A model generated the notes under the pieces. That model searched no databases. It was not told the DNA's origin and saw nothing but the letters and a program-made list of their open reading frames with translations. A program made the translations under genes and the position numbers. A DNA stretch of 63,052 nt, the filler included, from Collodictyon triciliatum (Eukaryota), in assembly GCA_043381765.1 (NCBI GenBank). It is 6 parts of 6 records of this genome, joined end to end, with 100 filler letters (N's around TTAATTAATTAA, not from the genome) between each part and the next. Parts side by side here need not be neighbours in the genome. Positions count along the whole stretch, not along the records: positions 21,127 to 31,535 come from JBHJMP010002684.1; 5 more parts are not named here. The stretch is one strand, 5' to 3'. This document shows positions 18,552 to 63,052 of the stretch, piece by piece. The stretch's first letter is position 1. Each line of letters begins with the position of its first letter.

Positions 18552-20988
18552 ACTTAAGTAAATATTTTGCCTCTTCCAGAATTCTGCTTTATATATACTT
18601 TTCTATTCTAGCAGATAAGGGAAATAAAACCCTACGTGCCCAAAACAGATTTTTCGTGCAACCTCCTCATCAATGTTGTCCGGAATCATGTGAAACGTGT
18701 TTAAGAAAGGGATAGTACCACTTATTGCCCATCTGCGATTACAATTTTTAGAAAGTATTTGATTAAAATAATACTAATTGCAACAATATTAATACTAACA
18801 AAAATTACCGACGCAGATCAGAGATGGTAATGGGTTCACGATTCCAGAGAATTGAAACGTATAGAAGAGATATTGTTATAGAAATGGGAGATACGTAAAA
18901 TCTAGTTTGTATTGAGTTGCAATTAATAATATATATTTTAGGAATACTAGCACGTTGAGTTTGATCAGTGCCACCATAAATATCCATCCAAGCACACACG
19001 AAATATGATAAATAAAGTTTTTTTTGTTGTTGTTGTTGCGTATATGTACCCGTCATTAGCATAGTATTTTTCAATCTTGATCAGTTCATGGTTGCCTAAT
19101 TGAATGTGGTAAATGCTATCGAAGATGGAAATCTCGTCATCATCACTGAAACCCAAATCTTCATCAGGTTCTTCCTCTTTGTCTGTTTCATCTAACTTGA
19201 ACTTCCTGTTCTTGCCCGCATATACGTCCTGCTCTTCAGGGCTAAGGTCAAGTTTCTATAAAGATTGACATACATTGGTATATATTTGGAACATCTCAAC
19301 TAAGAATGTAAAATATTATGCAATTTTTTTTATATATGTGGTAGCTTCATTACGTACTTCATATTCTGTTTCTTTTTTTAACCTTGAAAGGGATGTCAAA
19401 ATAAACATTTATGGGTGTTAAATGTAAATATATCTTAATATACAATTATGTATTTTCTTAACAAAATTATAAAGGATTCGTTCCATACTTTAAATCTAAT
19501 GAAGGAAAAATATTCATTCATAATTTTTTTTTAGAAAAAACCTTTTTGCAGCCTTCATAATTCGTCTCCTTTTTTGGTTATAAACAGAGTTTTTTCTTCT
19601 GTAAAATCATAAAGTACATATATGAATACTATTTCCCCTTAGGTTCAATCCAAGGGAAGCAAATTTAACAAATAAGCTAGTATGTTTCTGATAACATCAA
19701 TTATGAGAGTACAAGGGGTTTAAAACATAGCACGATATATTTAATACCTTTGAATAATCTTATTCTCCTCGTAGTTTAGAAATGCAAACCATACTTTACG
19801 GGCTGTTTGATACAAGGTATCATCACATCCACACCTTTCGATAAGGCATTCAACCTAGTTTACCATGATAAAAAACATATTTTTTTTAAGAGTATATCAA
19901 TATATAAAAAAATCAAATAATCGTGCCTATAATTGTTACTACAGACATATGAGCTTTCATGATTATATACACCTGTTTCTGAAAAATGAATTGCAACGTC
20001 ATCGAAGCAGCTTGCAATCCAGTAGATTTGGCTGTTCCAGGTTCACTTTTACTCTTATGCTCATCTCTTATCATAAGGGAGGCACTGTCCGCTATTTTGT
20101 AAGTTTTATTGTGTTTCCATTCAATAGCGGTGAAAGAAAAAGAAGCATACTGTGATTAATAACAAAATGCACACTACAGCTCATAAGAAGAAAAAAACCA
20201 CTCTGGGCGATTTTTAGTTAAGGTATGAAATATTAGAATCATGATGATTTATTAGTATTTCAGCCGAACATATTTGCGAAGTCATCTTAGTTTTCATAAG
20301 CGTGTGGCCCATTCTTTCGCCTATTTCATCAACTTCTTCTTGGAACCGCTATGAGATACGCGCACAATTACAAATTAAAAGGAGCGAAGCAAGTCTATTT
20401 TATCTTAAAACCTCCTTGATTCACTTTGAGTATGTATGGACATAATCATTTGCGGATAGTACAAGAATTACAAAGAAAGAATTAAAAGAAAGAATTAAAA
20501 AGAAAGAATAAAAAGAAAGAATAAAAAGAAAGAATAAAAAGAAAGAATAAAAAGAAAGAATAAAAAGAAAGAATAAAAAGAAAGAATAAAAAGANNNNNN
20601 NNNNAGAATTAATAAGAAAGAATTAATAAGAAAGAATTAATAAGAAAGAATTAATAAGAAAGAATTAATAAGAAAGAATTAAAAAAGAAAGAATTAAAAA
20701 AGAAAGAATTAAAAAAGAAAGAATTAAAAAAGAAAGAATAAAAAGAAAGAATAAAAAGAAAGAATAAAAAGAAAGAATAAAAAGAAAGAATAAGATAAAG
20801 AAAAAGAAAAAGAAAAAGAAAAATTAAAAAGAAAGAATAAAAAGAAAAAGAAAAAGAAAAAGAATAAACCAAACATGCAAAACACCGCAGTCATCGCAAA
20901 TGAATTGTCCCGCGTCATCCTCCGAGAAAGAAAAGCCATAACAGGCGCGACACCTGCGTGCCCGACGACGTCTCTGGGACGATTCCAT
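16210..20988 (-). CDS. TAF1B: RNA polymerase I initiation factor TAF1B/Rrn7 (TFIIB-like), multi-exon
   Basis: Zn ribbon MESSQRRRRARRCRACYGFSFSEDDAGQFICDDCGVLH; LQFIFQKQ|VECLIERCGCDDTLYQTARKVWFAFL; ISLLYVSILWNREPITISDLRR|WAISGTIPFL; C-terminal FHRQYVFLVEYMAVYL|DINPVILHVACHSLESQILRTKHE*. Confidence 0.85.
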
Positions 20989-21026: not shown

Positions 21027-21126
21027 NNNNNNNNNNNNNNNNNNNNNNNNNNNNNNNNNNNNNNNNNNNNTTAATTAATTAANNNNNNNNNNNNNNNNNN
21101 NNNNNNNNNNNNNNNNNNNNNNNNNN
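21027..21126. other. Artificial contig linker
   Basis: N44-TTAATTAATTAA-N44. Confidence 0.97.

Positions 21127-21215
<89 letters not shown>
21127..21215. repeat. (CTAT)n microsatellite at contig start
   Basis: Directly visible. Confidence 0.95.
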
Positions 21216-21216
<1 letters not shown>

Positions 21217-23073
21217 GCATTTTTTATATTTTTTTTTTAAAAAAGGAATCACAAGAAAGGTGTAGTGATTGTCATTCATGAAAGGAAACCATGCGCCGTT
21301 TTTTGTTATAGCAAAGGTCCATACATCGATTTTGCTTAATTTTTTGATTATAGAAAATCGTCTTTTAACAAGACAAAAAATTGAATGAGAAAAAATTGGA
21401 ACCAAAGCTTGATGTAAGGCGATAGAAGAAGGTCATCAGGTCAAGGTAACAATCAGGAAACGAGACTGACTGACCAGAAGCAATTCAAGAAAGCGTAATG
21501 AAGTTGAAGACGGCGTAATGGAACAAACAAGGCTGAGTGCACAATACATATTGTTGTACATAAAAAGGGAAAACACAATAGTGCAATAAAATATGCACAA
21601 AATGAAGACATAAACACACGAAATTAAAGAAAGCAGAAATTTGATTATGAAAAAAATTGTGCTTTATGTGCAATCGTTAACGTATACAATTTACACGAAT
21701 AATAGTGTGGGTCTCTTTCTCTGAGGATACATTCCACTTTACAGCTCATATTACTACAAGATTATCATGTAGGAAAGCGATGCTTGCTCTGATTGAATAA
21801 AAACATATCCTGTTACTATTTTAAGCAAAAAAAATAAGACAAAATAAATAAAAGTAGCAAATGGATTGAGGACAACCTTGATATGTACCGTTCAAATGAA
21901 GCAGCAAGACCAATACACAACTAATAATCTTTAAGCATCAAGGGCTTGTGCAACGAAACCAATCTGTTATCTATGCATTACCAAAATAGTATTCATAGTC
22001 CAATAAGATATTTCAAATGATTTATTATTCTGAGAGACTTAAGCATAGTACTTTAGTTTTTTTGGAAAAGGCTTATGAGGAAACAAATTTGTGGGATATC
22101 AAAGATAATGAGGAAAGAAAACTTTGCTTTTGTGAGTGCATATATTGTGGTTCGTAATAAAGAAAAAAAGAGTAAAAAATAAAAAGAACGACTGGGACGT
22201 AGAGAAAAGAAAGTAATCTCATAAGAGACAGAGAAATACATAAACAGGAATGCAAATAATTTTAAAATAAAAGAACGGGTTTACCTCTATATAAAACATA
22301 TCACTTAATGCATGCTGTTGGATATAATGCATCACTGATCGCCTATCCCTAGTGAATGATACAAAGCTGGCCATAGATTAGACTACAAACTGAGATTAAG
22401 TAGGGATATATATCAAAGTGATATTAGTCAAGCATGCTTATTCCTCCAGGGATACGTACACGTGAAGCGAAGCATATGTAGACACCTAGTATTGAATAAT
22501 CTATACAAAATAAAAACCGGGAAAGAGACTAAACCTTGCCTCTCTCTCATCATCCTGCACAAAAGTTGAAAGGAAGAATAAAAAAAACTCATCCAGTGGA
22601 ATGAAATAGGATGTAAACCTTGTCTGAGATAGACGATTGAAAGGACTCGTCGGAATCGATTTGAGAAATAACTGCCATGTGCGTGTACTTTCATCGACCT
22701 GACAACTTTATGCGTTCTCCTGTCAGTCTCGAATACAACCAGAAATCGCGTCGGAGCTGATTCACCTCTGGTAGAATAGTCTGCGTGTGAGAACACTTTC
22801 CCTACTTTCTATTTTGTTACTCGATATTCCTCTTCCAAAAAACACAAAAACTCCAACCACACAATCTGGGGTTTTCCACTGTCTTGTACCAGCTCATTTT
22901 TGTCCTAGAAGCGAAGGACGCCCATCATCGCGGTAAGATTCATAAGATAACCGCTCACGTTTTCCGCTAGGTTCATAAATACGTATGAAAAATGGAATGG
23001 TTCTTTTATTTTATTTCTTAGTTTGACGGTGCTGTTGATTGGGAAATCATAGCGACCATGTCAGGAGAATCTC

Positions 23074-26000
23074 TTAAAGGATTTGATTGAGAGCTGTGCC
23101 CAAAAATTTTTCAAAGAACTCAGAAATCTTGTTCTTCAATTCACTGATTCTGGGCTTGTTGGAGGTGAGCTTTGTTGCAACACCAAAGAGCAGAGCAATC
23201 ACAGAACTGAGGGCTTCCAGAGCGAATGGAATGATAAAGTCCAGAATAAACACGGCATTCAGCCCGATGATTGCAAAAACTATCCAGTCATTTCCGGGCA
23301 CTAGTTGTTGAACCAGCGCACCAAAAAATGATAAATAGAGCAACAACCAGCAGTTTATTGAAAGGCTGTCATCAGAGTCCAAGAGGTACGGCTCAAATCG
23401 ATTTTGAAGTGTAATCGACATCTATAAAATAAAACTAAACCTGTTAACCCAATTTTTATTTGTAAATATATGCAAAGGCGCTCACCTGAATTAAGATGAA
23501 GAATACAAAATAGAGAATCGCCGGTGATGTGTAAGGGACAAAAAATGCTGTAAATCCAAACAAAATCGATTGAAATACTCTGATGACCACCCACCAGTAA
23601 TATTTCTACACATTTATTTTATTATTTAGACTTCTGGAGAGAAGAAAAAATCAGTAATTTTTCAATCACTTTGATTACCTCTTCGTAGATAGCAGCGATT
23701 CGACCCACTTGAATCTGGCAAATGATATCAAAAGTTGATTGGCTTATTTTGAGACTCTCATTCAACTCATTTCGTCCATTCTTACTAGACTCGATACTCT
23801 TGATTGCAATTTGTACGTTGCACTCTTGAATAGAATCACTTTTATCCTGCGTCATGAAGTTTATTTAATATATATTTGATATAAATTATTTAATATTTAA
23901 TCAAACCGAATCAGTTTGCACAGCTTTTTCTCGTATCTGTTCATTTATAATTCTTCTAGAACTTCTCGCTCTTTTAACGATTAACCACAATAGACTTGGA
24001 TACAGAATCATATACAGCAAGCCCGGTATTGCAGCAGCAATCATTTTAGCATATTCATCGGTCATGGGGTTGCATTGTATCCACGGATAAGTGTTGACAT
24101 ACCACAAATCAAATCCTTTATCATATAAAGTGCATCCAAACGTGCTGATTACGTCTTGCACAACCGAAAAATATGTTCCTTCCAAGAATATAAACATAAC
24201 TCCGACAACCTGTTCATTATCACAGTCAGTTCGATCTCGTTATGCATGTATTTATATATATTTCCTTTATTAGATTCAAAGAATGTACTATTGAAGATAA
24301 AGATCGAATAAACAAACCTTCTCGACATTTTTCCAGTCTCCTTTTGAGATAAACTTTTTCAAAGCCAATAAAGCTATGAAAAATATGGCGGGGATTCGAG
24401 CCAAGTTCAGTAGCGATGTAATGTGGGGGCGATTTCCAACGATGCACTCCAGGGTTGGCAACCTCAGTGAGAACAAATTGCCGACAAATTTTCCAGCAAG
24501 GTTTATTTCTGGGAGAGTTACAATATTGCCAAGAACTTGGAGGATTTGCGTGTAAAACAAGAAAATGTCCAAGGATGCTGCAACAAGTGATTATGAATTC
24601 AACAAACAAGAAAATCAAATTATTAGTGAGATATTTATGATTTGTATACTGACCTGATTCGGTTTGGTCATCGTCTGCACCTTTAATACTGAATTTCTCC
24701 TCGATTTCGTCTACACTCTCACCTAGCCAAGCGTAGCCGACCTGATAGATAACCCCGAAAAAAAGCAGAAGAAGGAAAACAATAACCTTGAGAGCAGAGT
24801 AATCGGATGAGCATTCCCTGCATTCACCGCTGTCAAATAAGTATCCATCCTCACAAAAAGAGCAACTTCTTCCTTTGTATCCTTTTTCACACGGAAAATC
24901 ATAAGTATTGTTGCTAATGAGCATTCTCTCTGACATCAACTCTGGAATATAAAATTTGCACACGTCTGGATTCATGCACGGAACTATCTGGACTATCTTG
25001 AGAACGTCTGGTGTGAAATAGCATTTTTCCAAGGAAACACCATTACTACATTCACATTCTCTTGGACACTTTACACAATTGTCTCCAAATCCAAAGTAAC
25101 CAGGTAAGCATTTGCACAGCCCATATTCGTGGTACTTTGGGTCAATGTCCACTTCCATTTCAATCAAACCTGAACGAGAGACAACGGAAGGACATGCATA
25201 CCTGTCTGTCGTCCTTTCCAAATTGTAGGAGTCAGTGATATTTATAAAGGATGGAAGAAAATATGAAGAACCATGATTCATGCTCGTATTTTTCAAGCCT
25301 AAATAAGTCATCTTGATGAATAAATCATAAGATACAGGAATATTTCCAACAATCGGATTTCCAGTGAGGTCAAGGGAAGTCCATCTCAACAGATTTGTAA
25401 GTTCATCAAGCTTAGTGATGTTGTTATTCTTAAGGCTTAATGTTTTTACGTTGAGAACAAAGTCAAATATCCACCAATTCAGTTCTCCATTCAATTGGTT
25501 GTCATCAAGCAAAAGGTTTTCATAAAAACAATTGTAATTTAATGGATCTGGAACGACGAAGATGCCAATATCTCCAGAAAATGAGTTATTTCTCAAGTCA
25601 ATGGTGGCTAGATTTGGCAGATTCCAGAATGAATCAGGCATGCTTCCAGAAAATTTATTGTGGGATAAAACGAGTGATTTCAGCTCATAGAATTCCTGAA
25701 AACGATCTGGTATTGTGGCTTCCATTTGGTTCCACGACAAGTCGATGTATTGAATTGAAGGCACATTCCAGTATTCTGGAATAGAGCCACTGATTTGGTT
25801 TTCGCTCACATCTAGTCTTGTCAGATTATTCAGATTGAACATCGGTAGTGTGCCCGACAACTTGTTTCGGAACAACAATATTTCCTTGATGTTTTCACAA
25901 TATTTGAAATCTGGAACCTCTCCCTCCAACTGATTATTATAAACAGAAATAATCTCCAGTTTACGCATGTTTGAGAAGTTTGGAATTGTGCCTAAAATTA

Positions 26001-28694
26001 CTCATTAAATTAAGTTAAAAATGAAAATAAAAAAGAAAAATGAATAGGGTTACCATTCAATCGGTTTCTATCAAGCCAAATTATTAAAACATTTGGAATT
26101 CCACTGAAGTTTGGAACGTTTCCTGTAGTATAAAGTTAGTTTTTATTAATATTACATGAAATTAATAATAAAACACTTACCAGTCAATAGATTGCTGTGA
26201 AGGTGAATTCTTAAAACATTTGGAATTCCACTGAAATTTGGAACCGTTCCTGTAATATAAAGTTAGTTTTTATCAATAATAAATAAAATTATTATAATTA
26301 ACTTACCATCCAACTGATTGTTGGAAAGAGAAATTCTTAGAACATTTGGAATTCCACTGAAGTTTGGAACTGTTCCTGTAGTATAAAGTTAGCTTTGCAT
26401 CAATAATACATGAAAATTATTATAAAAACATACCAGTCAATTGGTTGCTGCGAAGATAAATTCCTAAAACATTTGGAATCCCACTGAAGTTTGGAACTGT
26501 TCCTGTAGTATAAAGTTAGCTTTGCATCAATAATACATGATATTATAATTAAAATTTACCATTCAACTGATTGTCGGAAAGATAAATTTCTAAAACTATC
26601 GGAATTCCACTGAAGTTTGGAACTGTTCCTGTAATGTGAAGTTAGTTTTTATCAATAATAAATAAAATTATTATAATTAACTTACCATCCAACTGATTGC
26701 TGGAAAGATAAATTCCTAAAACATTTAGAATTCCACTGAAGTTTGGAACCGTTCCTGTAATATAAAGTTAGTGTTTTATCAGTAACACATGAAATAATAA
26801 TTAAAATTTACCAGTTAATTGATTGCTGTGAAGAGAAATCTCTAAAACATTCGGAATTCCACTGAAGTTTGGAACCATTCCTGTAATATAAAGTTAGTTT
26901 ATTTTTTCTACTACATTAAAATAAAATAATTAAAACTACCATTGAAAAGATTCCTGAAAAGCCAAATTATTTCAACATTCGGAATTCCACTGAAGTTTGG
27001 AACGGTTCCTGTAATGTGAAGTTAGTTTCTTTTTTATATTATACATGAAAATAATAATTAAAATTTACCAATCAATTGGTTGCTGTAAAGATAAACCCAT
27101 AAAACGATTGGAATCCCACTGAAGTTTGGAACGGTGCCTGTAATATAATGTTAGTTTTTTATACTACATGAAAATAATAATTAAAATTTACCGGTCAACT
27201 GGTTGTCGGAAAGAGAAATCTCTAAAAGCTTTGGAATTCCACTGAAGTTTGGAATGGTCCCTGTAATTTAAAGTTAGTTTTTATCAATAATACATGAAAA
27301 TAATAATTAAAAACTTACCAGTCAATTGATTGCCGTCAAGCCAAATTATTAAAACATTTGGAATTCCACTGAAGTTTGGAACGTTTCCTGTAGTATAAAG
27401 TTAGTTATGTATCAATAATGCATGAAATAACAATTAAAACTTACCATTCAATTGGTTGTTGTAAATATGAATTATTTCAACATTCGGAATTCCACTGAAG
27501 TTTGGAACTGTTCCTGTAATATAAAGTTAGTTTTTCTATGCCATCATACTTGATAAAAAAACAAAAAACAAACCATGAACTTTGCAGCTATAAATTCCAA
27601 GAATCTGAAGATTTGGCAACGCTGAGAAATCAGGCAGAGCTCCTGAAATGAAAAATCATTAGAATTCAGAATAAATCATATTGGATGTTACTCTATACCT
27701 TTAATTTTTTCACTTTCACCAATGTATAATTTCTTTAGTGACTGTATTCCAGAAAAATCTGGTATTGTTCCTTCCAATTCATTCCCATCAATCTCAATAT
27801 GTTCAATATTTGGCATTCCTTGAAAGTCTGGAATCGTTCCTGTAATTTGATTCACAAAGAGATTCAGATACGTAATACTTGGGAGATTAAAGTCTGGAAG
27901 ATTTCCGTAAATGAAGTTGTAGCTCATGTCCAAATAATCCAATAATTGGAACTTCTCAAAAATTGCAGAGGCAGCTTCAATGTCACCATTAAGGTTGTTT
28001 CCTGACATCCTGACTTCATATATAGGGCATGTGTTTCTCTATAAATAAAAAGGAAAAAATGTTAAAAATGTAATCAAAAGAGATTATTATCATACTGGGA
28101 ATACCTTATAGTCTTCATCCGAACAGCTCTGATGACAAGATATTCCATACCAATCACAAATTGGAATACTTTCATTCTTCCATCCAGTGTTCCGAAACCA
28201 ATTATCGCCGCCAAGTAAATCATAAAGTTGGACAAGCAGTTCGTATTGGGTCCCAGTATTTCCATCAGCCACACTTCGGTTCTCTTCGTTCTCCAACCCC
28301 TGCTCTCTGTTTCCACTTCGTTTAGGCGAATGGATTTCTTTGTAGAAATCGGCATTACTAGATGTTGATTTTCTTCCGTAATTCCATTTATCACCGTGCC
28401 CATTTTCTAGCGAGTATTCTCCGTCTTTCCAGCCATTCATCAACCCTGGAAAGTTATACTCGCTCTCTTTTAACAAAGGACATGTCTCATCGTAGTGGCT
28501 CAACAGAATTTGGAATGCATCTTCTATTTTCATGGAAAGCAACTCATCTCTTGAATACTGGCATCTGTTTTCATCATTAGAGTCGAAAGTATATTTTATA
28601 AATATTCATAAATCAAAATATACCTTTGACGTGGATGAATTGAGGATGCCGATGAAACAATGAAAACGATGGCAACAGACGCAACCAAAAGCAT
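23074..28694 (-). CDS. Cell-surface LRR receptor: signal peptide, plant-type LRR N-cap, about 28 LRRs (13 on single-repeat exons), Cys-rich EGF/TNFR-like stalk, multi-pass (about 7 TM) C-terminal domain
   Basis: MLLVASVAIVFIVSSASS; LVQLYDLLGGDNWFRNTGWKNESIPICDWYGISC; GTIPDF..NQLxG repeats; CKCLPGYFGFGDNCVKCP, CEKGYKGRSCSFCEDGY; TM segments with LFYTQIL, YYWWVVIR, LQNRFEPY. The 3' end is approximate. Confidence 0.88.
26054..27513 (-). repeat. Tandem array of 12 exon+intron units (period ~126 bp); each 69-nt phase-1/phase-1 exon encodes one 23-aa LRR
   Basis: Each unit reads ...CTAAC(T/A)...TACAG|GA ACx GTT CCA AAC TTC AGT GGA ATT CC...G|GTA; first exon 27445-27513, last exon 26054-26122. Confidence 0.95.
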
Positions 28695-31535
28695 CGAATT
28701 TCTGGTTATATATTTAAAATTAAGACTAATTAATCCAATGTATTTATCACAGATTGAATTATGAAACGCACGTTGCAGGAATTTTGGGAGTTGTCCTTAT
28801 CGATTCGAAGAAATTATTGCGTTGGAAATCAGTTCTTTTTTCATCAGGTGAGTGCATTCCTATCCTATTGCAATTTACTTCTTAGTATAAGTTGAATATT
28901 ATCAGTTCTGCTGATATTTTATTCACCAAACATAGGAATGTTCAGCAAATTTGATTTCAAGAATATTCAGCAAATTTGATTTCAAGAATATTCAGTATTA
29001 AATAAAGGAAATTCTCAAATCGAAGCTTAATTTTGTGTCTATTTATCAAATATTATTGATTTTTCATGTGATATAAGGTTGATACAATGAAAATAATGCA
29101 TTATTCATAAAAATAAATCAACACAAACATATTGCTTAGGAAAAATGAATTTTTTAGTATATATAATTTTATTTTCATTATTTGATTTTATATTTTTTTC
29201 ATTAACTGTCTTTTTTTTATTTTTAACTTTCCTTCTGATATATCAATATCATCTCCGTAAACCACTTGTCTTTTCGTACACTCATATATCTTGATTCAAT
29301 ATTTTAATCCTCTCTCATCTTTCAATTTCATATAAACCAGGTAAATAATCTATTATTCAGCATCTTGAGATATTCACCGATAAGCTAAAACGTATGATTG
29401 CAAATACAAATGAATTTTGATAGATAAGAGAATAATAAGTTTGTGATTAATATGAGTTGATTAATGACTAAAATAATTAAAACAGAATGAAACTATTTGC
29501 ATAAAATCATTGTGACGGCTAGAACTTTAGTAATTCCTAAAATCATAAATGTCGGTTCAAAATTATAAGAAAAATGTTTATGATTGTTGCATTCGTATAA
29601 ATTGTTATTCATCATCATATTGAAAAATATTAGGATAAGAACCATTTACTCGAATCCTCTAAGTGTTAACCATATAATCACACAGTAATTAATCAAACAA
29701 CCAGAGGTTAAAACAGCCATATAATTAGATAATTTATATTGAATCAATTATTAAAGAAACCCTGTTTGCTTGACAATATCAAATAATTATTAGATGAGAA
29801 AAAATATCACCCTTGAACATGGCTTCCGATAAAATTTGTTCTGGATTTAAAAGTCTAAAATTGAGTTTTTATGAAATCTTCCTTCAGTTAGCTGGATTAC
29901 TAATTGTTTTAGAACTATGCTTACTCATGAAGTACAACCATATGTATATGGAAATGGCCAAGCGAAGAGTCACATCCTAATATTCGGTAAAGTTACATCA
30001 ACAACTGATTGAAATACCAAAATATGTTTTATGAGAGCTGGGTATCATCTCTAAGAGGTTCGATGATTAGCAATAAGTTTCACTATAGATTTGCATGTAT
30101 TCATCTGTTTCATCGTGATTATTTCATTCTCTATAAGGAGGCACTTAGTTGTGGATTCAAATCAACCAACTATCTTAAATCCAATCGTATGTCAATTTCC
30201 ATATTAATATTATTCATTAAATCAAATCCAAAGCACTGAAAGTTATATCGATAAAAATTTGACTATATTTTTTGACTATTAATAGCGATATGTTTTATGT
30301 AAATCTTATATTTCATTGAGCTCTAAACCATGTAATTTTTAAATTCCTTTGGAACCCAAGATAAAATCAGTGTTTAAAAGAAGCTAAAACTCATTATGAT
30401 ACAAGATTAAAAAAAGGTATTGATATTATTCAATTTACAATCAAAATCATTTCAAGAGATATTTTAGAACTGAAAGTTTAGTTATTCAATTGGTTAAAAT
30501 TTCTATCAATTCAGAAAAATTGTATCCTTGTATTTGAATATTTGATAGAAAAATGAATAATATAGAATATCAATAAAATTGTATATGCATTAATTCTAGT
30601 ACTCGGCCATATTTTGACCAAATAGGAATAAATCGAACAATATCAAGTATTTATTAATAAGATAGAATCAACAATATGAACAATCATAGAAGCCATACTG
30701 TATGTGTTGATAAAATAAATAAATCATAATACAAACCAAAACAAATATACGAAAATATAATTTGTACGCATAAAAATGATTTTTTAATATATTTGAATGA
30801 TGGTAATCGTAAAACAAAATAAGGGCATGAACCGTCTACCATATTCTCGGTTAGTCAGGGGAACATAATAATACATATAACAAATACCTTTTCATTACCT
30901 CTGATTGATTTGGAATTGGAAGGAGGAGGGTGGGTTTGTTGTATTTGAAAAATCGACATCTAAATCACCAAGAGAGAAAATTAAACTAATTTAGATGATT
31001 TAACATCGATTAATTATCAAATAAGTTTCTTTATTGAGCGGTAAACCTACAAATCATTTCACTTGGAGAAACGAACAAGGTCTAGTAAGGTGAGGGGTAT
31101 GGGTGTGAAGCTGTGGACAAATGATTGCAGTTCGGTCAAGGGGGAGGGGTGGTGTATCATTCAGCGGCAAACTGGTTTTTTGTGGGATATGGTATGTGTT
31201 TTTCGATTTGGATATAATAATGGTTCATATGTTGATTAGTTGGTTTTTAAATTCACATAAGATGGAAAAGTGTATTATTAATTTAATTAAGACGTCATAT
31301 TAAAATACGGATACCAAGAATCTGCAGATAACTAAGCTTCTCTAGTAGATACGTAATTTAAAGATTTTTTTGTATATTTAGTATTCAAAAGGCGATACGT
31401 AATACGATTATTGAAAAATAAACGACATAGCGATGCAGATGCATTAGACAGACTATTCACTTTGATTAAACTTCATTAGAAAACATATAGCTGAGGCAAT
31501 TATAATATAAATATTAAAATATTGATTCCATGTTT

Positions 31536-31635
31536 NNNNNNNNNNNNNNNNNNNNNNNNNNNNNNNNNNNNNNNNNNNNTTAATTAATTAANNNNNNNNN
31601 NNNNNNNNNNNNNNNNNNNNNNNNNNNNNNNNNNN
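31536..31635. other. Artificial contig linker
   Basis: N44-TTAATTAATTAA-N44. Confidence 0.97.
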
Positions 31636-32303: not shown

Positions 32304-41611
<9,308 letters not shown>

Positions 41612-42046: not shown

Positions 42047-42146
42047 NNNNNNNNNNNNNNNNNNNNNNNNNNNNNNNNNNNNNNNNNNNNTTAATTAATT
42101 AANNNNNNNNNNNNNNNNNNNNNNNNNNNNNNNNNNNNNNNNNNNN
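42047..42146. other. Artificial contig linker
   Basis: N44-TTAATTAATTAA-N44. Confidence 0.97.
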
Positions 42147-42216: not shown

Positions 42217-42971
42217 TAGATAGAAAATGAAAAAAAAATAAAACATCGACAACACAAAAGCAAAGGGGAAAAAAAAAAGACAAAACAAAACAAAATAAAC
42301 AACCAAAGAAACAGAATAAAACAAGGGCTTGAGAACCCCTGCAAGGGGAGGGAAGTGCCGCGATGTGAAGAGATGTTAGCCTACCCTGCAGAGTGGACGG
42401 GTTGTATGATTTCAGTCGCGCTGGCTCCATCGGGGACTGCGTCTGTGTTGATCTTGCGCAACTGGATCAGAAGTGGCTCTTGTCCGAGTATGTGACTTAC
42501 ACGCAAAAGCGATCGCAATCGAAAACAACGCAAGCAGATGACTACCTCATCATCAAAAGCGATGCAAAAAAAAAAACGAGATCATCAATTCCATAAAAGA
42601 TTGAGCAGTTTTGTCCACTATTGTCACATGATATTTTGCACAATATGCGTAATTTTATCTACGAATATGACCTGCAGAGTCATCTATTCAAATTAAAGGC
42701 AGTATATTATAAATCCCGCATTTGATTAACCGTTGTCTATTTCTGGAAAAGCCTTTGTGTCGAACAAAACACGCCTGTGTGTCTTCTGAGGCGACAAAAC
42801 ACAACGCCCAATCGGCTCACCTATCCGCCTTCTCTTCGAACTCTGCCAACCTGCTGCCCTTGCGAGATAGAACACATGATACACATTATCTCCATCATTG
42901 TTTTTGCGCTGTGCAGACCCAATCAGTTTATCGCCTAATGAATCATTTATTTACTTATTTTTATGCAGTAG

Positions 42972-45900
42972 GGAAATTAAAGAAAGCTTGATGGAGGGAG
43001 GTGTCGATCTAGACAAGCCGAGCATATTCCATTTTTCCTTTGGGGACATTCTGATCGATCATGCTCAGGCTTCAATGGCAGAGATCATCAGAGTCCGGTT
43101 GCCCGATGAGATTAAATGGGAATGCGCAGTAGTCTCATTCGATTACGCACTGCTCGCAGATATCGATACGCAAGTGCAAAGCAGCAGTAGCGGCCAAGTC
43201 ATCAAACACCTTATCGCTAGTGCGGCCTCATCAATGGGAATATCAACAGAAATTATCAATCTACAAAAGAATCTCGGCCACTCGATTTATTCTGATTTTT
43301 TCACGCCTAATATATCGTTCATGACTGATAGTCAGGTAAGAATCCACTTTAGTGTTTACAATAAAGGCCTGTGTGGGGGTGGACATTGCATCTCCCGTTC
43401 CAGCGTGCGAACTCCAGTACCTATCGAACATACTTCAACAAACGGTGGCCTTGGACCTATTGCGCAGCCGAACCAGCCTTTGCAAAATAACTTGGTTGAC
43501 ACGAAGGAGACTCCTACTCAGGACGTAACGAAAGAACCTACCCCATCAATCCCGAAGCTTCCGCCTAATCCCACGCCACAATTCCGCATATTCACGTCGG
43601 ATATGAATCCAGATATTATGATTCCCTTTGGTCAAGCAGACCACAAACAAGACATTAAAAATGTGGAGCAACTCTCTCAATACATTCTGCATAATCCAAA
43701 CGCTCCAGAGACCTCGAAGCTAATTAATATTGCAGTTCAGTTATTCAGTGCCTTGCAAAGGTCGCCAGGGTTGGATATGCCTCGTATTTCTGAATTGTCG
43801 GTTCTTTCAAAAGCGAATATACCTGAATTAAACACAAAAATCCTAAATGATATCATAAGACACTGGGAAACATCAACAGATGCGAGTAAGGATGATGCAT
43901 TATTGGCATTGCATACAGTGTTGTCTTGGACGCCCTTATCTCTGATAGATGACTCGCTATGGACGCCTTTGATGAATATTTTAACGAAGGAAATTTCCCT
44001 CCTAAGCGATATGAATTTAGAAGAACATTGGGTGTCTTTCTCTCTTCTGTGCGATCTAATCTCCATGCTTGTATTCTGCAATACCCTCAGGGTTCCACAA
44101 ACGTTGAGAGATCCAGTCACCCTAATAGTTTCAAAAGGTCTTGTATCTCAGGATTATCGTGTTATAGCGGGTTCATCCTTACTTTCTGAATTGATGGATA
44201 TGAAAATGTCTGATGCATCCCAATCGATGCTCCCATATCAAAAGAATACTCGGGACTTGCCCATCGCATTAGGATCAGTGGGGCGCTTCCTTTCTTCTCA
44301 CAAGATAGCAATCATGTCTAAAGAAAAAAACTCCTTATCGTTGTACTTGAAAGCTCATGCAAAGTTAGACCCCTGGTTCATAGATCTGAAAAAAAGCTTG
44401 TTTTACATGTTCACGTTCCAGTTTATTTTATTTGAAAAATACGTCTTCTACGAGTGTAAAAGCAGAGAAAGTTTATTTTATTGCTCCAATATCGTCTTTA
44501 ACATGGCGTATATGATGGAAGCGCTTGAAAATGAATCGATATCGATGCTCTTTACTGCTTTTTTGACCACTATGGTTACAAAAGCTTCATTTTGGATCGA
44601 TACAATGCCATTCCGTAAATTTGTTTTGCAAATCATCTACGACATGTCAATGCACAGGTGTTCAAATATATCTGTACCCGCAAACAAAGCCTTAAATGAC
44701 ATGAAAGGTTTAGAAGAGCAGGACAAAAGCATAGCTGAACTTCTTGAACAGGTTTCAAACAAAGAACCAATCACATGGAGCATACAAATGAAAAAAACCA
44801 CACTTACGGATGAAATATGTTCGAGCTTTATCAAAATGCCCGAAATAGAGTTGTCCTTCTGTACTATTGTCGAAAAATTGACCGCTTTTCCACTAACTAC
44901 TCTTCCAAGACAGCTATTTGTTCCTGTTCAATTAGTTCATTTGAGAAAGATGATGTGTGTGGATGGCTTAGGTGCAGTGGATTCTTTCCTTCAATCAGAT
45001 TCTAAACATATGCTGGTAAGAGGACCTCAAGGCTCGGGTAAAGCCACTTTGGTTGAAAAAATATTTGAGAAATACATATCTGAGTGGCAACCAGGACAGT
45101 ACCTTCCTATGGTTGTGGACTATCATTTTTTGGAAATAGACCCAACATCTTCTTTTAGTGCCCTCATCGAGCATATGTTTAAAATACTCTCTTCAAAACT
45201 GAAATTGGATTTAAGTATAGTATTATCCGATTTAACGAAAGGAAAATACTTTCTCATTTTTGTCGACCAAGATGGCAATTTTTTAAAGAATATTTGGCCT
45301 GAATTAAGCGATACTTTCCAAGCTTTTGTGTACAAAGTCTGTGTGTTTACAAACGACATTTACGATGTCAGGGAACGCACAAATAGCCTGCAAATTCAGA
45401 ATGTATATACCCATGTCGATTTTGACGCTGAGCAAACCTTTTACATAAAACCCTGGGATGAAAAAATGATGATTAAAATGTATGAGGCAAAACAATTGAA
45501 CATCGAAGAAAGAACCCAAAATACTGAAGATTCTTTGTTAAAAACTTTGATTAAGCTTGATGGACTTCAAAAAATAGTCAGCACTCCGCTACACTCATAT
45601 ATTGCCATTAGTGCTCTGTCTCTGTTAAAAGATCCAGAGAAAAAGGGTTATGAAAAAGATTATCAAGTTTTGCATCCATTCCACTGTTACGAGCTTTATC
45701 AAGAATCCTTTTTTGATGCAAAGTACTCTGAAATATCTAAAACTGGTAAATGTGCAGCATACCCATCAAGAGAACTGTTCTTATCTATTCAGAAAGACAG
45801 ATTAAAGGTTTTTGCATACGTTGTTGAGAGCTCTGGTTCGGCATCTTTTCAGTTCTTCCCTCTCACAGAACCCGAATCTGAGGTCCGCGACAGTAGATTA

Positions 45901-62000: not shown

Positions 62001-62866
62001 TGATGAAAACGAAATTATGGTTACAGCTCCAGTGCAGAATTTGAACTGAAGTACAATATATATATGCATCAATAGACAGATTTGAGTATCAAACCCTTTA
62101 TCCATATTCCATTTCTGAAGAATCGCACTGTGTTCTGTGTCATTCTTTCTGATTGTTTTGACGATATTTGAGAGAACAGACTTAATCACAGCAGACTTCT
62201 GCTGCAGCTGAGTTTCATACGGGATTCTCCATGTGGGAGTAACCACATCTGCGGCCGTCTTGTTTGGAATTACGGACTCAGCCAAAGTCTGTGTATTTTC
62301 TTTGGTTCCGTCTCCATCCCTGCTCTTCTTGGAGGATGCTAAGCAGCATTTGTGTCAGAGAAAACCAGCATATACGTATTCAAGGAAACGATTGAGATAA
62401 TCTGAAATGGACCCGCTGAAACCTTCGCTTTCTCCCTCAGAACGCCGCTTTGCGGATGAGCCCAAGACACCGCCTTTCTTTGCGAATCTAGCCTCCAACT
62501 TGAGCCCTTCAAAGTCCTTCCCATGAATCAACCCTATTGCTTTCTCGGCATCCTCTCTTGTCTGTGCGATGCAATACAAAGGATTCGGGTTTGTATATGA
62601 TGCAATGAGTTTAGTTGCTGCGCATACAGGCAACATTTGCGAAATAAGAAGGCTTTCGAGAGGCATATTTCGTTATGTTTGGATACGTGAACCTGGAGGG
62701 TAAGGTGAGCAAAAGCCACTCCGTTTGGTTTGTTGAGTTTGCCGGAAGGAACGCCCCAGTCTTGGAAGGCGCGCTGGATGCGGTTGGCCTTGGCGTACGA
62801 TTTGAAGTTGAAGACAAAGATTTTGGTGTTGTCCGGGTCGTCGGCCTTATCGGTTGTCGCTTCCAT
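59051..62866 (-). CDS. TRMT2A: tRNA (uracil-54-C5)-methyltransferase TRMT2A/Trm2 homolog with N-terminal RRM
   Basis: DVVTPTWRIPYETQL, YRNKNEFTIG, FQISPGAFFQVNT, LDVCCGTGTIG, VDPPRSG, VYVSCNP, AVDLFPHTKHCE. Confidence 0.95.
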
Positions 62867-63052
62867 TTTATTCTGCTTGTAAATTGATATAAAAATATGA
62901 TAACAAGAGGACGAATACATGGGTATTGTAGAGGGTTTTCTATTGCTTTTGTTTTGTTCTTTTTTGTTTTTTTGTTTTTTTTTTGTTTTTTGTTTTTTGT
63001 TTTTTGTTTTTTGTTTTTTGTTTTTTGTTTTTTGTTTTTTGTTTTTTGTTTT

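Follow-up and report, generated by a model that had tools for sequence, protein, structure and literature searches.

A receptor gene with an array of single-repeat exons

The 63,052-nucleotide (nt) stretch of DNA analysed here, called the window throughout, comes from the draft assembly of Collodictyon triciliatum (GCA_043381765.1; six parts joined end to end). On its minus strand, at 28694-23074, it carries a gene for a predicted cell-surface receptor with leucine-rich repeats (LRRs), the middle of which is an array of 12 consecutive exons, each encoding one LRR (26054-27513). By joining open frames across canonical GT-AG introns (21 introns), we obtained a 22-exon model with 1434 codons (4305 coding nt) and the sole stop codon at its end; as modelled, the gene is intact, complete and open. 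Its exons, all on the minus strand, are listed below with the evidence for each.

28624..28694, minus: exon 1, start codon and hydrophobic signal peptide (ATG at 28694, GT donor after 28624; hydropathy peak at residues 1-19)
28105..28564, minus: exon 2, N-terminal region with an LRRNT-like Cys/Trp cap at its end (splice sites; Pfam LRRNT_2)
27699..28038, minus: exon 3, several LRRs, 340 nt (Pfam LRR_4, E=1.7e-12; splice sites)
27574..27642, minus: exon 4, diverged single-LRR exon, phase 1-1 (69 nt, AG/GT flanks)
27445..27513, minus: array unit 1 exon (69 nt; splice borders, translation)
27319..27387, minus: array unit 2 exon (69 nt; 71-nt tract identical to unit 12)
27192..27260, minus: array unit 3 exon (69 nt; splice borders, translation)
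27069..27137, minus: array unit 4 exon (69 nt; splice borders, translation)
26940..27008, minus: array unit 5 exon (69 nt; splice borders, translation)
26812..26880, minus: array unit 6 exon (69 nt; splice borders, translation)
26686..26754, minus: array unit 7 exon (69 nt; unit 10 is its nearest partner)
26560..26628, minus: array unit 8 exon (69 nt; splice borders, translation)
26434..26502, minus: array unit 9 exon (69 nt; splice borders, translation)
26307..26375, minus: array unit 10 exon (69 nt; mosaic, unit-9-like in its 5' part and unit-7-like in its 3' part)
26181..26249, minus: array unit 11 exon (69 nt; splice borders, translation)
26054..26122, minus: array unit 12 exon (69 nt; splice borders, translation)
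24654..25991, minus: exon 17, about ten LRRs, Cys-rich stalk and first membrane helix, 1338 nt (Pfam LRR_1, E=8e-19, and LRR_8, E=2e-18; hydropathy peak at 989-1007)
24318..24577, minus: exon 18, membrane domain (introns on both sides, 24578-24653 and 24210-24317, removed in RNA contigs of run X2)
23907..24209, minus: exon 19, membrane domain bearing the signature of the family, FGCTLYD...W...N..PWI.C (24022-24206 present in an RNA contig)
23679..23846, minus: exon 20, loop region (RNA contig 23679-23815 joined to 23605; acceptor at 23846 placed from the frame and the homologue P0008)
23486..23605, minus: exon 21, membrane helices (intron 23606-23678 spliced in an RNA contig)
23074..23421, minus: exon 22, last membrane helices and stop codon (in frame; collinear with the C-terminus of P0008)

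Every one of the 12 array exons is exactly 69 nt long and bounded by AG and GT, and the intron interrupts a glycine codon after its first base, giving phase 1-1 throughout. The preliminary description of this DNA had placed these exons, together with the diverged copy at 27574-27642, precisely where we find them; the 12 differing variable halves it listed match our translation letter for letter, and the LRRs that flank the array do sit, as it held, in large multi-repeat exons (340 and 1338 nt). Tandem Repeats Finder, run on the window, returned a period of 126 base pairs (bp) with 11.5 copies, 80% matches and a score of 1612 (span 26078-27535), and a 21-nt scaffold pattern had 12 matches in the window, as against 0.01 expected from shuffled sequence. 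Each unit encodes 23 residues, G1 to N23, with the LRR core V12-x-x-I15-x-L17-x-x-N20-x-L22; in unit 7, leucine replaces the scaffold proline at position 10. Exon 4 was missed by a nucleotide profile of the 12 units and would be an older copy or the founder of the array.

The 11 internal introns measure 57, 58, 54, 60, 59, 57, 57, 57, 58, 57 and 58 nt, a range of 54-60 nt compared with 56-108 nt for the other introns of the gene. Their length is thus close to the 57 nt first reported, but 'near-identical' overstated their likeness: pairwise identity runs from 67 to 96%, with a mean p-distance of 0.17.

Plant-type extracellular LRRs joined to a rare membrane domain

From the N-terminus, the predicted protein comprises a signal peptide, an LRRNT-like cap, LRRs (about 29 in the ectodomain), a Cys-rich stalk and a multi-pass membrane domain. 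Roughly eight hydrophobic helices make up the latter, the first in exon 17 and about seven in the five later exons. The LRR region matched Pfam LRR_4 with E=4e-17, and LRR_1, LRR_8 and LRR_4 all scored over their cut-offs; exon 2 matched LRRNT_2 (PF08263) with E=0.0022 and 18.7 bits, under the curated cut-off of 20.7. These scans covered the receptor's exon translations other than those of the array and exon 20, and two C-terminal translations gave no family. Neither a kinase nor ROC-COR was among the matches of the scanned translations, which comprised LRR families and the sub-cut-off LRRNT_2 only. Among proteins of solved structure (PDB sequences), the best relatives of exon 17 were GSO1 (6s6q, E=2.3e-72), FLS2 (4mn8, E=1.2e-66) and PEPR1, in a range to 1e-64, and we classify the domain, on sequence similarity, as a plant-type extracellular LRR. 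The host uses the standard genetic code, as the 445 open codons of a single exon show. A 25-bp tandem repeat (28936-28995; 2.4 copies, 97% matches), some 240 bp upstream of the start codon, could be an element of the promoter region.

The best full-length relatives of exon 17 were six transcriptome proteins, all of Diphylleia rotans (EukProt EP00002; P0002, P0003, P0004, P0006, P0008 and P0011). Five are 28-40% identical to it over 92-93% of its length; P0008 is 40% identical over 59%, and 59% identical to the receptor in the membrane-domain exon. When that exon (23904-24209) was searched against 1.84 billion representatives, 54 proteins matched at E<=0.001, 26 of them at 1e-10, and the family consensus contains the signature FGCTLYD...W...N..PWI.C. 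Pfam analysis of 46 of the 54 (leaving aside eight that were short or weakest) found LRR_1 in 32, DUF7630 in 15 and the TRP family PF06011 in nine (E<=0.01). The best PF06011 match had E=3.8e-5, and the members listed individually scored 11-18 bits, under the 28.5-bit cut-off; the receptor's own C-terminal exons had no PF06011 match in Pfam, and the relative P0280 matched nothing among PDB sequences by phmmer. By these comparisons the membrane family appears rare and LRR-linked, and is perhaps distantly TRP/Flc-like. Our literature searches found no published description of the receptor family and no paper dealing with both Diphylleia and leucine-rich repeats, and none of the matches they listed describes, by title or abstract, a receptor that combines LRRs with a TRP-like part.

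The best match to the membrane domain was a 190-residue fragment with 79% identity (P0265). It reads through the position of the intron 24210-24317 and appears to have been called as a gene from unspliced DNA, either of a related strain or of a paralogue.

Transcription and splicing of the 3' part of the gene

Metatranscriptome contigs from run X2 differ by only 0-3 letters from the 3' part of the gene, and the introns 24578-24653, 24210-24317 and 23606-23678 are precisely spliced out of them. Transcription, and splicing as modelled, are thus seen for the 3' part of this gene or of an allele nearly identical to it. No sequencing run searched contained more than 0.10 of the sampled words; small shares of the organism or its relatives occurred in freshwater and aquaculture samples.

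DNA contigs from the runs are fragments of paralogues or relatives at 90-95% identity; some metagenome contigs, at about 90% identity, show other unit orders, with one joint skipping 1292 nt and another returning 115 nt. These odd joints may equally come from paralogues or other strains and give no guide to habitat, strain or copy-number variation. Two further metagenome contigs that matched the 21-nt scaffold pattern (L001 and L002) were set aside as chance matches in an unrelated gene that has no LRR array.

Variation is concentrated on the predicted concave face

In LRR proteins, the residues at x in LxxLxLxxN make up the concave beta-sheet face. They correspond to codons 13, 14, 16, 18 and 19 of the array unit, and, mapped through the LRR consensus, its hypervariable residues are predicted to line that face. 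The changes cluster at these positions, as had been claimed: codons 14, 16, 18 and 19 each take five to seven different residues among the 12 units, while codons 4, 6, 7, 9 and 20 are invariant in protein. Trp, Tyr, His, Arg, Asp and Glu, in which the x positions had been called rich, do supply 26 of the 48 residues at the four most variable codons, but the commonest single residue is Ser (12). The scaffold, for its part, had been described as nearly invariant even at synonymous sites. This holds for codons 3-9 (three synonymous variants in 84 codons) and less well for the scaffold as a whole, in which codons 1, 2, 8 and 10 vary synonymously; third positions of codons 3-9 (three steps on seven sites) were not significantly slower than introns (49 on 56; p=0.27).

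We estimated nonsynonymous (dN) and synonymous (dS) divergence by the Nei-Gojobori method, pooled over all 66 unit pairs. Scaffold codons 1-10 gave a dN of 0.043 and a dS of 0.29, codons 14, 16, 18 and 19 a dN of 0.89 and a dS of 0.51 on only 2.1 synonymous sites, and all other codons a dN of 0.10 and a dS of 0.33; the Jukes-Cantor distance among introns was 0.19. A dN/dS at or below 1 at the x positions had been named in advance as speaking against the preliminary description, and what we found was a dN of 0.89 there compared with 0.19-0.33 for neutral proxies; that objection therefore does not hold.

Fitch parsimony, on a tree built from the introns and the non-x codons with the x codons excluded, gave a concordant picture. 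First and second positions of the five x codons chosen a priori took 40 steps on ten sites (4.0 per site), compared with 49 steps on 56 sites for introns (0.875 per site; p=2e-11) and 26 steps on 18 sites for third positions of other codons (1.44 per site; p=5e-5). Per site, the x codons thus changed at some 4.6 times the rate of the introns and 2.8 times that of the other third positions; a four-codon version of the test gave ratios of 2.5-4.9. Parsimony undercounts saturated sites, and the test of the x codons is therefore conservative. Together, these comparisons support a role for selection that created or preserved diversity on the predicted binding face.

Traces of tandem duplication and homogenization

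Across the 12 units, the scaffold codons are uniform, with CCA, TTC, AGT and ATT each in 12 of 12, and GTT and AAC each in 11 of 12. In the rest of the receptor gene, TTC encodes 36% of Phe, AAC 36% of Asn and AGT 19% of Ser. Codon usage elsewhere in the gene differs, and the uniformity of the scaffold therefore reflects common descent or homogenization rather than codon preference.

The array exons differ pairwise by 9-32%. Units 7 and 10, three units apart, form the closest pair (exon 91% and downstream intron 96% identical), and exact tracts are shared by units 2 and 12 (71 nt), 7 and 10 (61 nt) and 9 and 10 (60 nt). These tracts and the mosaic make-up of unit 10 fit unequal crossing-over accompanied by some gene conversion; given how the variable sites cluster, the lengths of the tracts by themselves suggest this but do not prove it. 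The intron upstream of unit 1, downstream of exon 4, already carries the array-type 3' end (CTAAC...ACAG), which suggests that the amplified unit began in the distal part of one intron and spanned the exon and the start of the next intron.

Mean pairwise repeat identity is 0.53 in this gene's run of 16 repeats, compared with 0.23-0.40 in the 23-residue LRR runs of some 50 relatives. On this measure the amplification is therefore comparatively recent; so far, it has been seen in this gene only.

A germline-diversified array as the probable explanation

The anatomy and open frame of the gene, the splicing of three downstream introns, the tandem origin of the array and the excess of change at the x codons are established by the data above. 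We propose that the 126-bp unit, a 69-nt phase 1-1 exon with a 57-nt intron, was repeatedly duplicated in tandem by unequal crossing-over. After duplication, the convex-side scaffold G-T-V-P-N-F-S-G-I-P would have been retained under purifying selection, while four to five concave-face residues per repeat would have been driven or kept apart by selection for new binding specificity, with occasional gene conversion among units homogenizing introns and scaffolds. All 13 single-LRR exons would be spliced constitutively into one mRNA and form the middle of the LRR solenoid. Diversification would then be germline and evolutionary (copy number, order and x-residue change across generations) rather than somatic. 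We regard this explanation as a whole, a tandem-duplicated and constitutively spliced array with a selected concave face, as probable. The protein would bind ligands at its concave face and signal through the membrane domain, possibly as a channel, and might serve to recognise prey, microbes or kin.

Several points weigh against this proposal. The sole RNA over the array is one 80-nt contig of about 90% identity (four differences in 42 aligned letters), which is not this gene's own RNA; its unaligned end continues into a second scaffold (…T-G-T-V-P-N-F-S), an array-type exon-exon junction, and by its sequence it would stem from a paralogue or a related strain. For brown-algal ROCO genes, whose exons follow the same design, splice variants that differ in their LRR sets have been annotated (PMC11378527; here and below, the published papers are cited from excerpts), and among non-animals Tetrahymena alone shows an enrichment of frame-preserving exon skipping (PMC6142364). 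Tetrahymena has both LRR arrays of 3n exons and this enrichment, which makes some skipping plausible here by analogy. As to selection, the tests rest on pairwise counts and parsimony and compare paralogous repeats rather than orthologues; the tree is uncertain, the units have probably undergone conversion, and the x codons include only about two synonymous sites.

The first of the rival explanations is a repertoire made by alternative splicing: different subsets of the 13 exons would be skipped, so that the isoforms would vary in concave surface and in solenoid length, an idea put forward for the brown-algal ROCO genes. We consider this unlikely, though it has real points in its favour. Any skip of a symmetric 69-nt phase 1-1 exon preserves the frame; the Ectocarpus ROCO genes have up to nine annotated variants with different LRR combinations (PMC11378527), the skipping seen in Tetrahymena shows a 3n bias (PMC6142364), and one Diphylleia isoform, P0244, lacks 48 residues (about two LRRs) of its LRR region. 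P0244 is otherwise aberrant, however, with 48 mismatches and more than 270 membrane-domain residues missing, and in four of the five Diphylleia isoform clusters that were aligned, the isoforms vary only at the N- or C-terminus and not in their LRR units (set aside in this comparison were cluster 3, with two members of 1602 residues, the short P0242, P0245 and P0259, and unrelated members of 54-55 residues).

The splice signals themselves argue for inclusion. Each of the 11 array introns begins with GTA, ends with ACAG and carries CTAAC at -17, whereas only three of the gene's ten other introns have CTAAY within 20 nt of the acceptor; the array signals are at least as strong as those of the other ten, and more uniform. 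According to the excerpts of PMC6142364, weak splice sites accompany exon skipping, which is uncommon outside bilaterians. Introns of 54-60 nt, a normal size for this gene, would also leave little space for Dscam-type selector elements, and relatives carry uninterrupted runs of 4-13 LRRs at 23-residue spacing, which fits all units forming one solenoid. Constitutive inclusion of all array exons is thus what we would expect, with fair confidence, and a genuine splicing repertoire seems doubtful. Still less credit goes to its fullest version, in which varying subsets of 13 interchangeable exons would furnish a surface-recognition repertoire coupled to a possible TRP-like channel domain; we think this improbable.

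A second rival dispenses with positive selection: under relaxed constraint the x residues would drift, while concerted evolution rejuvenates the remainder of each unit and so inflates the ratio. Consistent with this, long exact tracts between non-adjacent units and the mosaic unit 10 point to conversion, a homogeneous block extends from the 3' end of the intron through the scaffold and ends before the x codons, and dS at the x codons lies above that of the other codon classes. Conversion tracts of 60-71 nt, however, would homogenize the x codons too, unless selection removed the converted copies, and such removal would amount to selection in favour of diversity. Units 7 and 10, the youngest pair, are unlike at three of four x codons but at only two of 57 intron positions, and the enrichment of aromatic and charged residues at the x positions likewise argues against drift. 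We judge this rival to have a small chance of being right, and continue to favour selection on the concave face.

An artefact or a dead gene, that is, a misassembled repeat or a pseudogene, is very improbable. The draft window does contain 15 N runs, and the low share of sampled words in any sequencing run adds to the doubt. None of the N runs, however, falls within 21127-31535, and the exons diverge enough, with a longest exact repeat of 71 nt within the array, for short reads to resolve the units; a collapsed or expanded assembly is therefore unlikely. The frame is open across all codons and 21 introns, and the 3' part of the gene is transcribed and spliced.

Unit profiles (nhmmer and hmmsearch, both strands of the 63-kb window) matched only the 12 exons and, weakly, this gene's other LRRs. 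The orphan donor cassettes that the preliminary description had proposed to look for did not turn up in the window, nor did antisense ones. Flanking cassettes like those of variable lymphocyte receptors (VLRs) and intronic relics like those of Ectocarpus are therefore excluded locally. The least probable rival, VLR-like somatic assembly with the array as a cassette store recombined in the DNA of individual cells, has in its favour only the analogy of LRR units with hypervariable concave residues and the other unit orders in metagenome contigs of about 90% identity, which paralogues or strains would explain equally, and is close to untenable for a germline gene that is complete and open with canonical introns, rather than an incomplete gene with a non-coding insert, that has no flanking, orphan or antisense cassettes in the window and whose every cassette has its own splice sites. 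Of the combinatorial repertoire first drawn by analogy with VLR and Dscam, the symmetric single-LRR units stand; with a complete gene, strong splice signals and a window free of cassettes, a VLR- or Dscam-like repertoire is not supported.

Other features of the window

Exons of the largest subunit of RNA polymerase II (RPB1) lie at 33225-34145 and 40040-41611 on the plus strand and include a long canonical YSPTSPS tail. The two RPB1 fragments are at most 59% identical to any database protein, with named matches spread over Amoebozoa, animals, fungi and plants. By this measure the host would be a divergent microbial eukaryote that has, therefore, no close sequenced relative in the databases searched.

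An uninterrupted frame of 2699 codons occupies 42880-50979 (plus strand), 15 kb from the receptor gene in window coordinates. It encodes a Walker-A-like G-P-Q-G-S-G-K-A-T, two regions of WD40 propellers along with pentapeptide repeats and, at the C-terminus, a block of Sel1 repeats (E=1.8e-72), a build that resembles STAND/NLR-like NTPases. LRRs of another type (LxxLxxLxLxxNxLxxLP-like; Pfam LRR_14, E=1.6e-13), unrelated to the array units, are encoded at 9309-9887 on the minus strand. The sole Rfam match in the window is a tRNA gene at 7541-7614, minus strand (RF00005, 63.9 bits).

Paired runs of 44 N, with 12 bases between them, recur every ~10.5 kb (10416-10515, 21027-21126, 31536-31635, 42047-42146 and 52551-52650) and look like a scaffolding or masking artefact rather than biology. 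Simple repeats are abundant at 20463-20864, at 21127-21216 and at the window ends (1-450, 55527-56100 and 62534-63052); they include a 13-nt AAGAATAAAAAGA array, (CTAT)22 and long tracts rich in A/G, whose frames are rich in K/Q/N. Several borders of N runs also carry TYIH-type microsatellites.

Significance and comparison with known systems

Our evidence comes from one gene in one window, and an exceptional mechanism is unproven. Within that frame, the locus is compact and testable, and bears on how free-living protists evolve recognition specificity and on whether exon modularity is used within a lifetime or across generations. The array sits in an extracellular receptor of a rare membrane-protein family (54 members among 1.84 billion representatives). 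Were exon subsets used after all, the array would give the brown-algal ROCO proposal, made for cytoplasmic proteins, its first parallel in a membrane-anchored extracellular receptor. The array would be a third independent origin, alongside those in ROCO and Tetrahymena genes, of a design in which one LRR per symmetric exon is amplified in tandem and its concave face evolves fast. The receptor lies outside the ROCO and Tetrahymena families and works like them as an evolutionary device, by convergence. Beyond these two cases, which are in print as the preliminary description had said, our literature searches found nothing on single-LRR exons in other protists.

The nearest parallel in exon design is with the type I LRR exons of the brown-algal (Ectocarpus and Saccharina) ROCO genes. 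There, each LRR is a single 72-nt exon with the consensus GxxPxxLxxxxxLxxLxLxxNxLx, and dynamic exon shuffling and positive selection on concave-face sites have been described (PMC3341825). As here, there is one LRR per exon, with a length of 3n and a symmetric phase; the exons, about 13-17 of them, stand in tandem arrays and carry the plant-specific GxxPxxL scaffold, and copy number varies between recent duplicates (PMC3341825, PMC11378527). The positively selected sites, 14, 16, 18 and 19 of the 23-residue window in the ROCO proteins, are by the printed consensus x3, x5, x7 and x8 of LxxLxLxxN, and look structurally equivalent to our hypervariable positions (PMC11378527). The ROCO exon differs in being 72 nt long (24 residues) and in phase 2 (PMC11378527), compared with 69 nt (23 residues) and phase 1 here. 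ROCO proteins are cytoplasmic LRR-ROC-COR GTPases, whereas our receptor starts with a signal peptide and continues, past the LRRs, into a Cys-rich stalk and a multi-pass membrane domain, with no Pfam ROC-COR in the exons scanned; and the inactivated and antisense LRR exons found in Ectocarpus introns have no counterpart in the 63-kb window.

Tetrahymena LRR genes share with the array tandem exons of one exact length and one extreme intron phase, in fast-evolving LRR genes, and have been explained by exon duplication or shuffling via unequal crossing-over. Their exons measure exactly 90 bp and are in phase 2, compared with 69 nt and phase 1; they belong to thousands of genes, associated with a LINE-like element, in a ciliate with germline and somatic nuclei, whereas here a single gene is seen, with the standard code.

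Lamprey and hagfish VLRs and arthropod Dscam resemble the array in their modular repeats and in the variable residues that form a binding surface, Dscam also in its tandemly duplicated exons. VLR assembly, however, requires that the germline gene be incomplete and that donor cassettes without splice sites flank it, whereas this gene is complete, no such cassettes occur in the window, and AG and GT flank every unit. In Dscam one exon per cluster is chosen for each mRNA, with docking and selector RNA elements, whereas here the exons are consecutive turns of one solenoid, and relatives have long LRR runs.

In the LRRs themselves, the likeness is to plants. Plant LRR receptor kinases and receptor-like proteins have GxIP-type extracellular LRRs, as here, and an N-terminal Cys/Trp cap motif, of which the LRRNT-like end of exon 2 (under the Pfam cut-off) may be the counterpart. 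Plant resistance LRRs are hypervariable at the solvent-exposed residues of xxLxLxx, and plant LRR genes usually hold many LRRs per exon. The plant repeat has a period of 24 residues, compared with 23 here and in the relatives, and a plant receptor kinase has its cytoplasmic kinase after a single membrane helix, whereas this protein has a multi-pass membrane part and no kinase family was found in its scanned exon translations. The closest counterparts in overall build are the proteins of Diphylleia rotans, which combine LRRs, a Cys-rich part and a multi-pass membrane part and have the same 23-residue LRR with a G-[TS]-[IV]-P-[ND]-F-S scaffold; known from transcripts only, they have older LRR runs than the array described here, to judge by their lower repeat identity.

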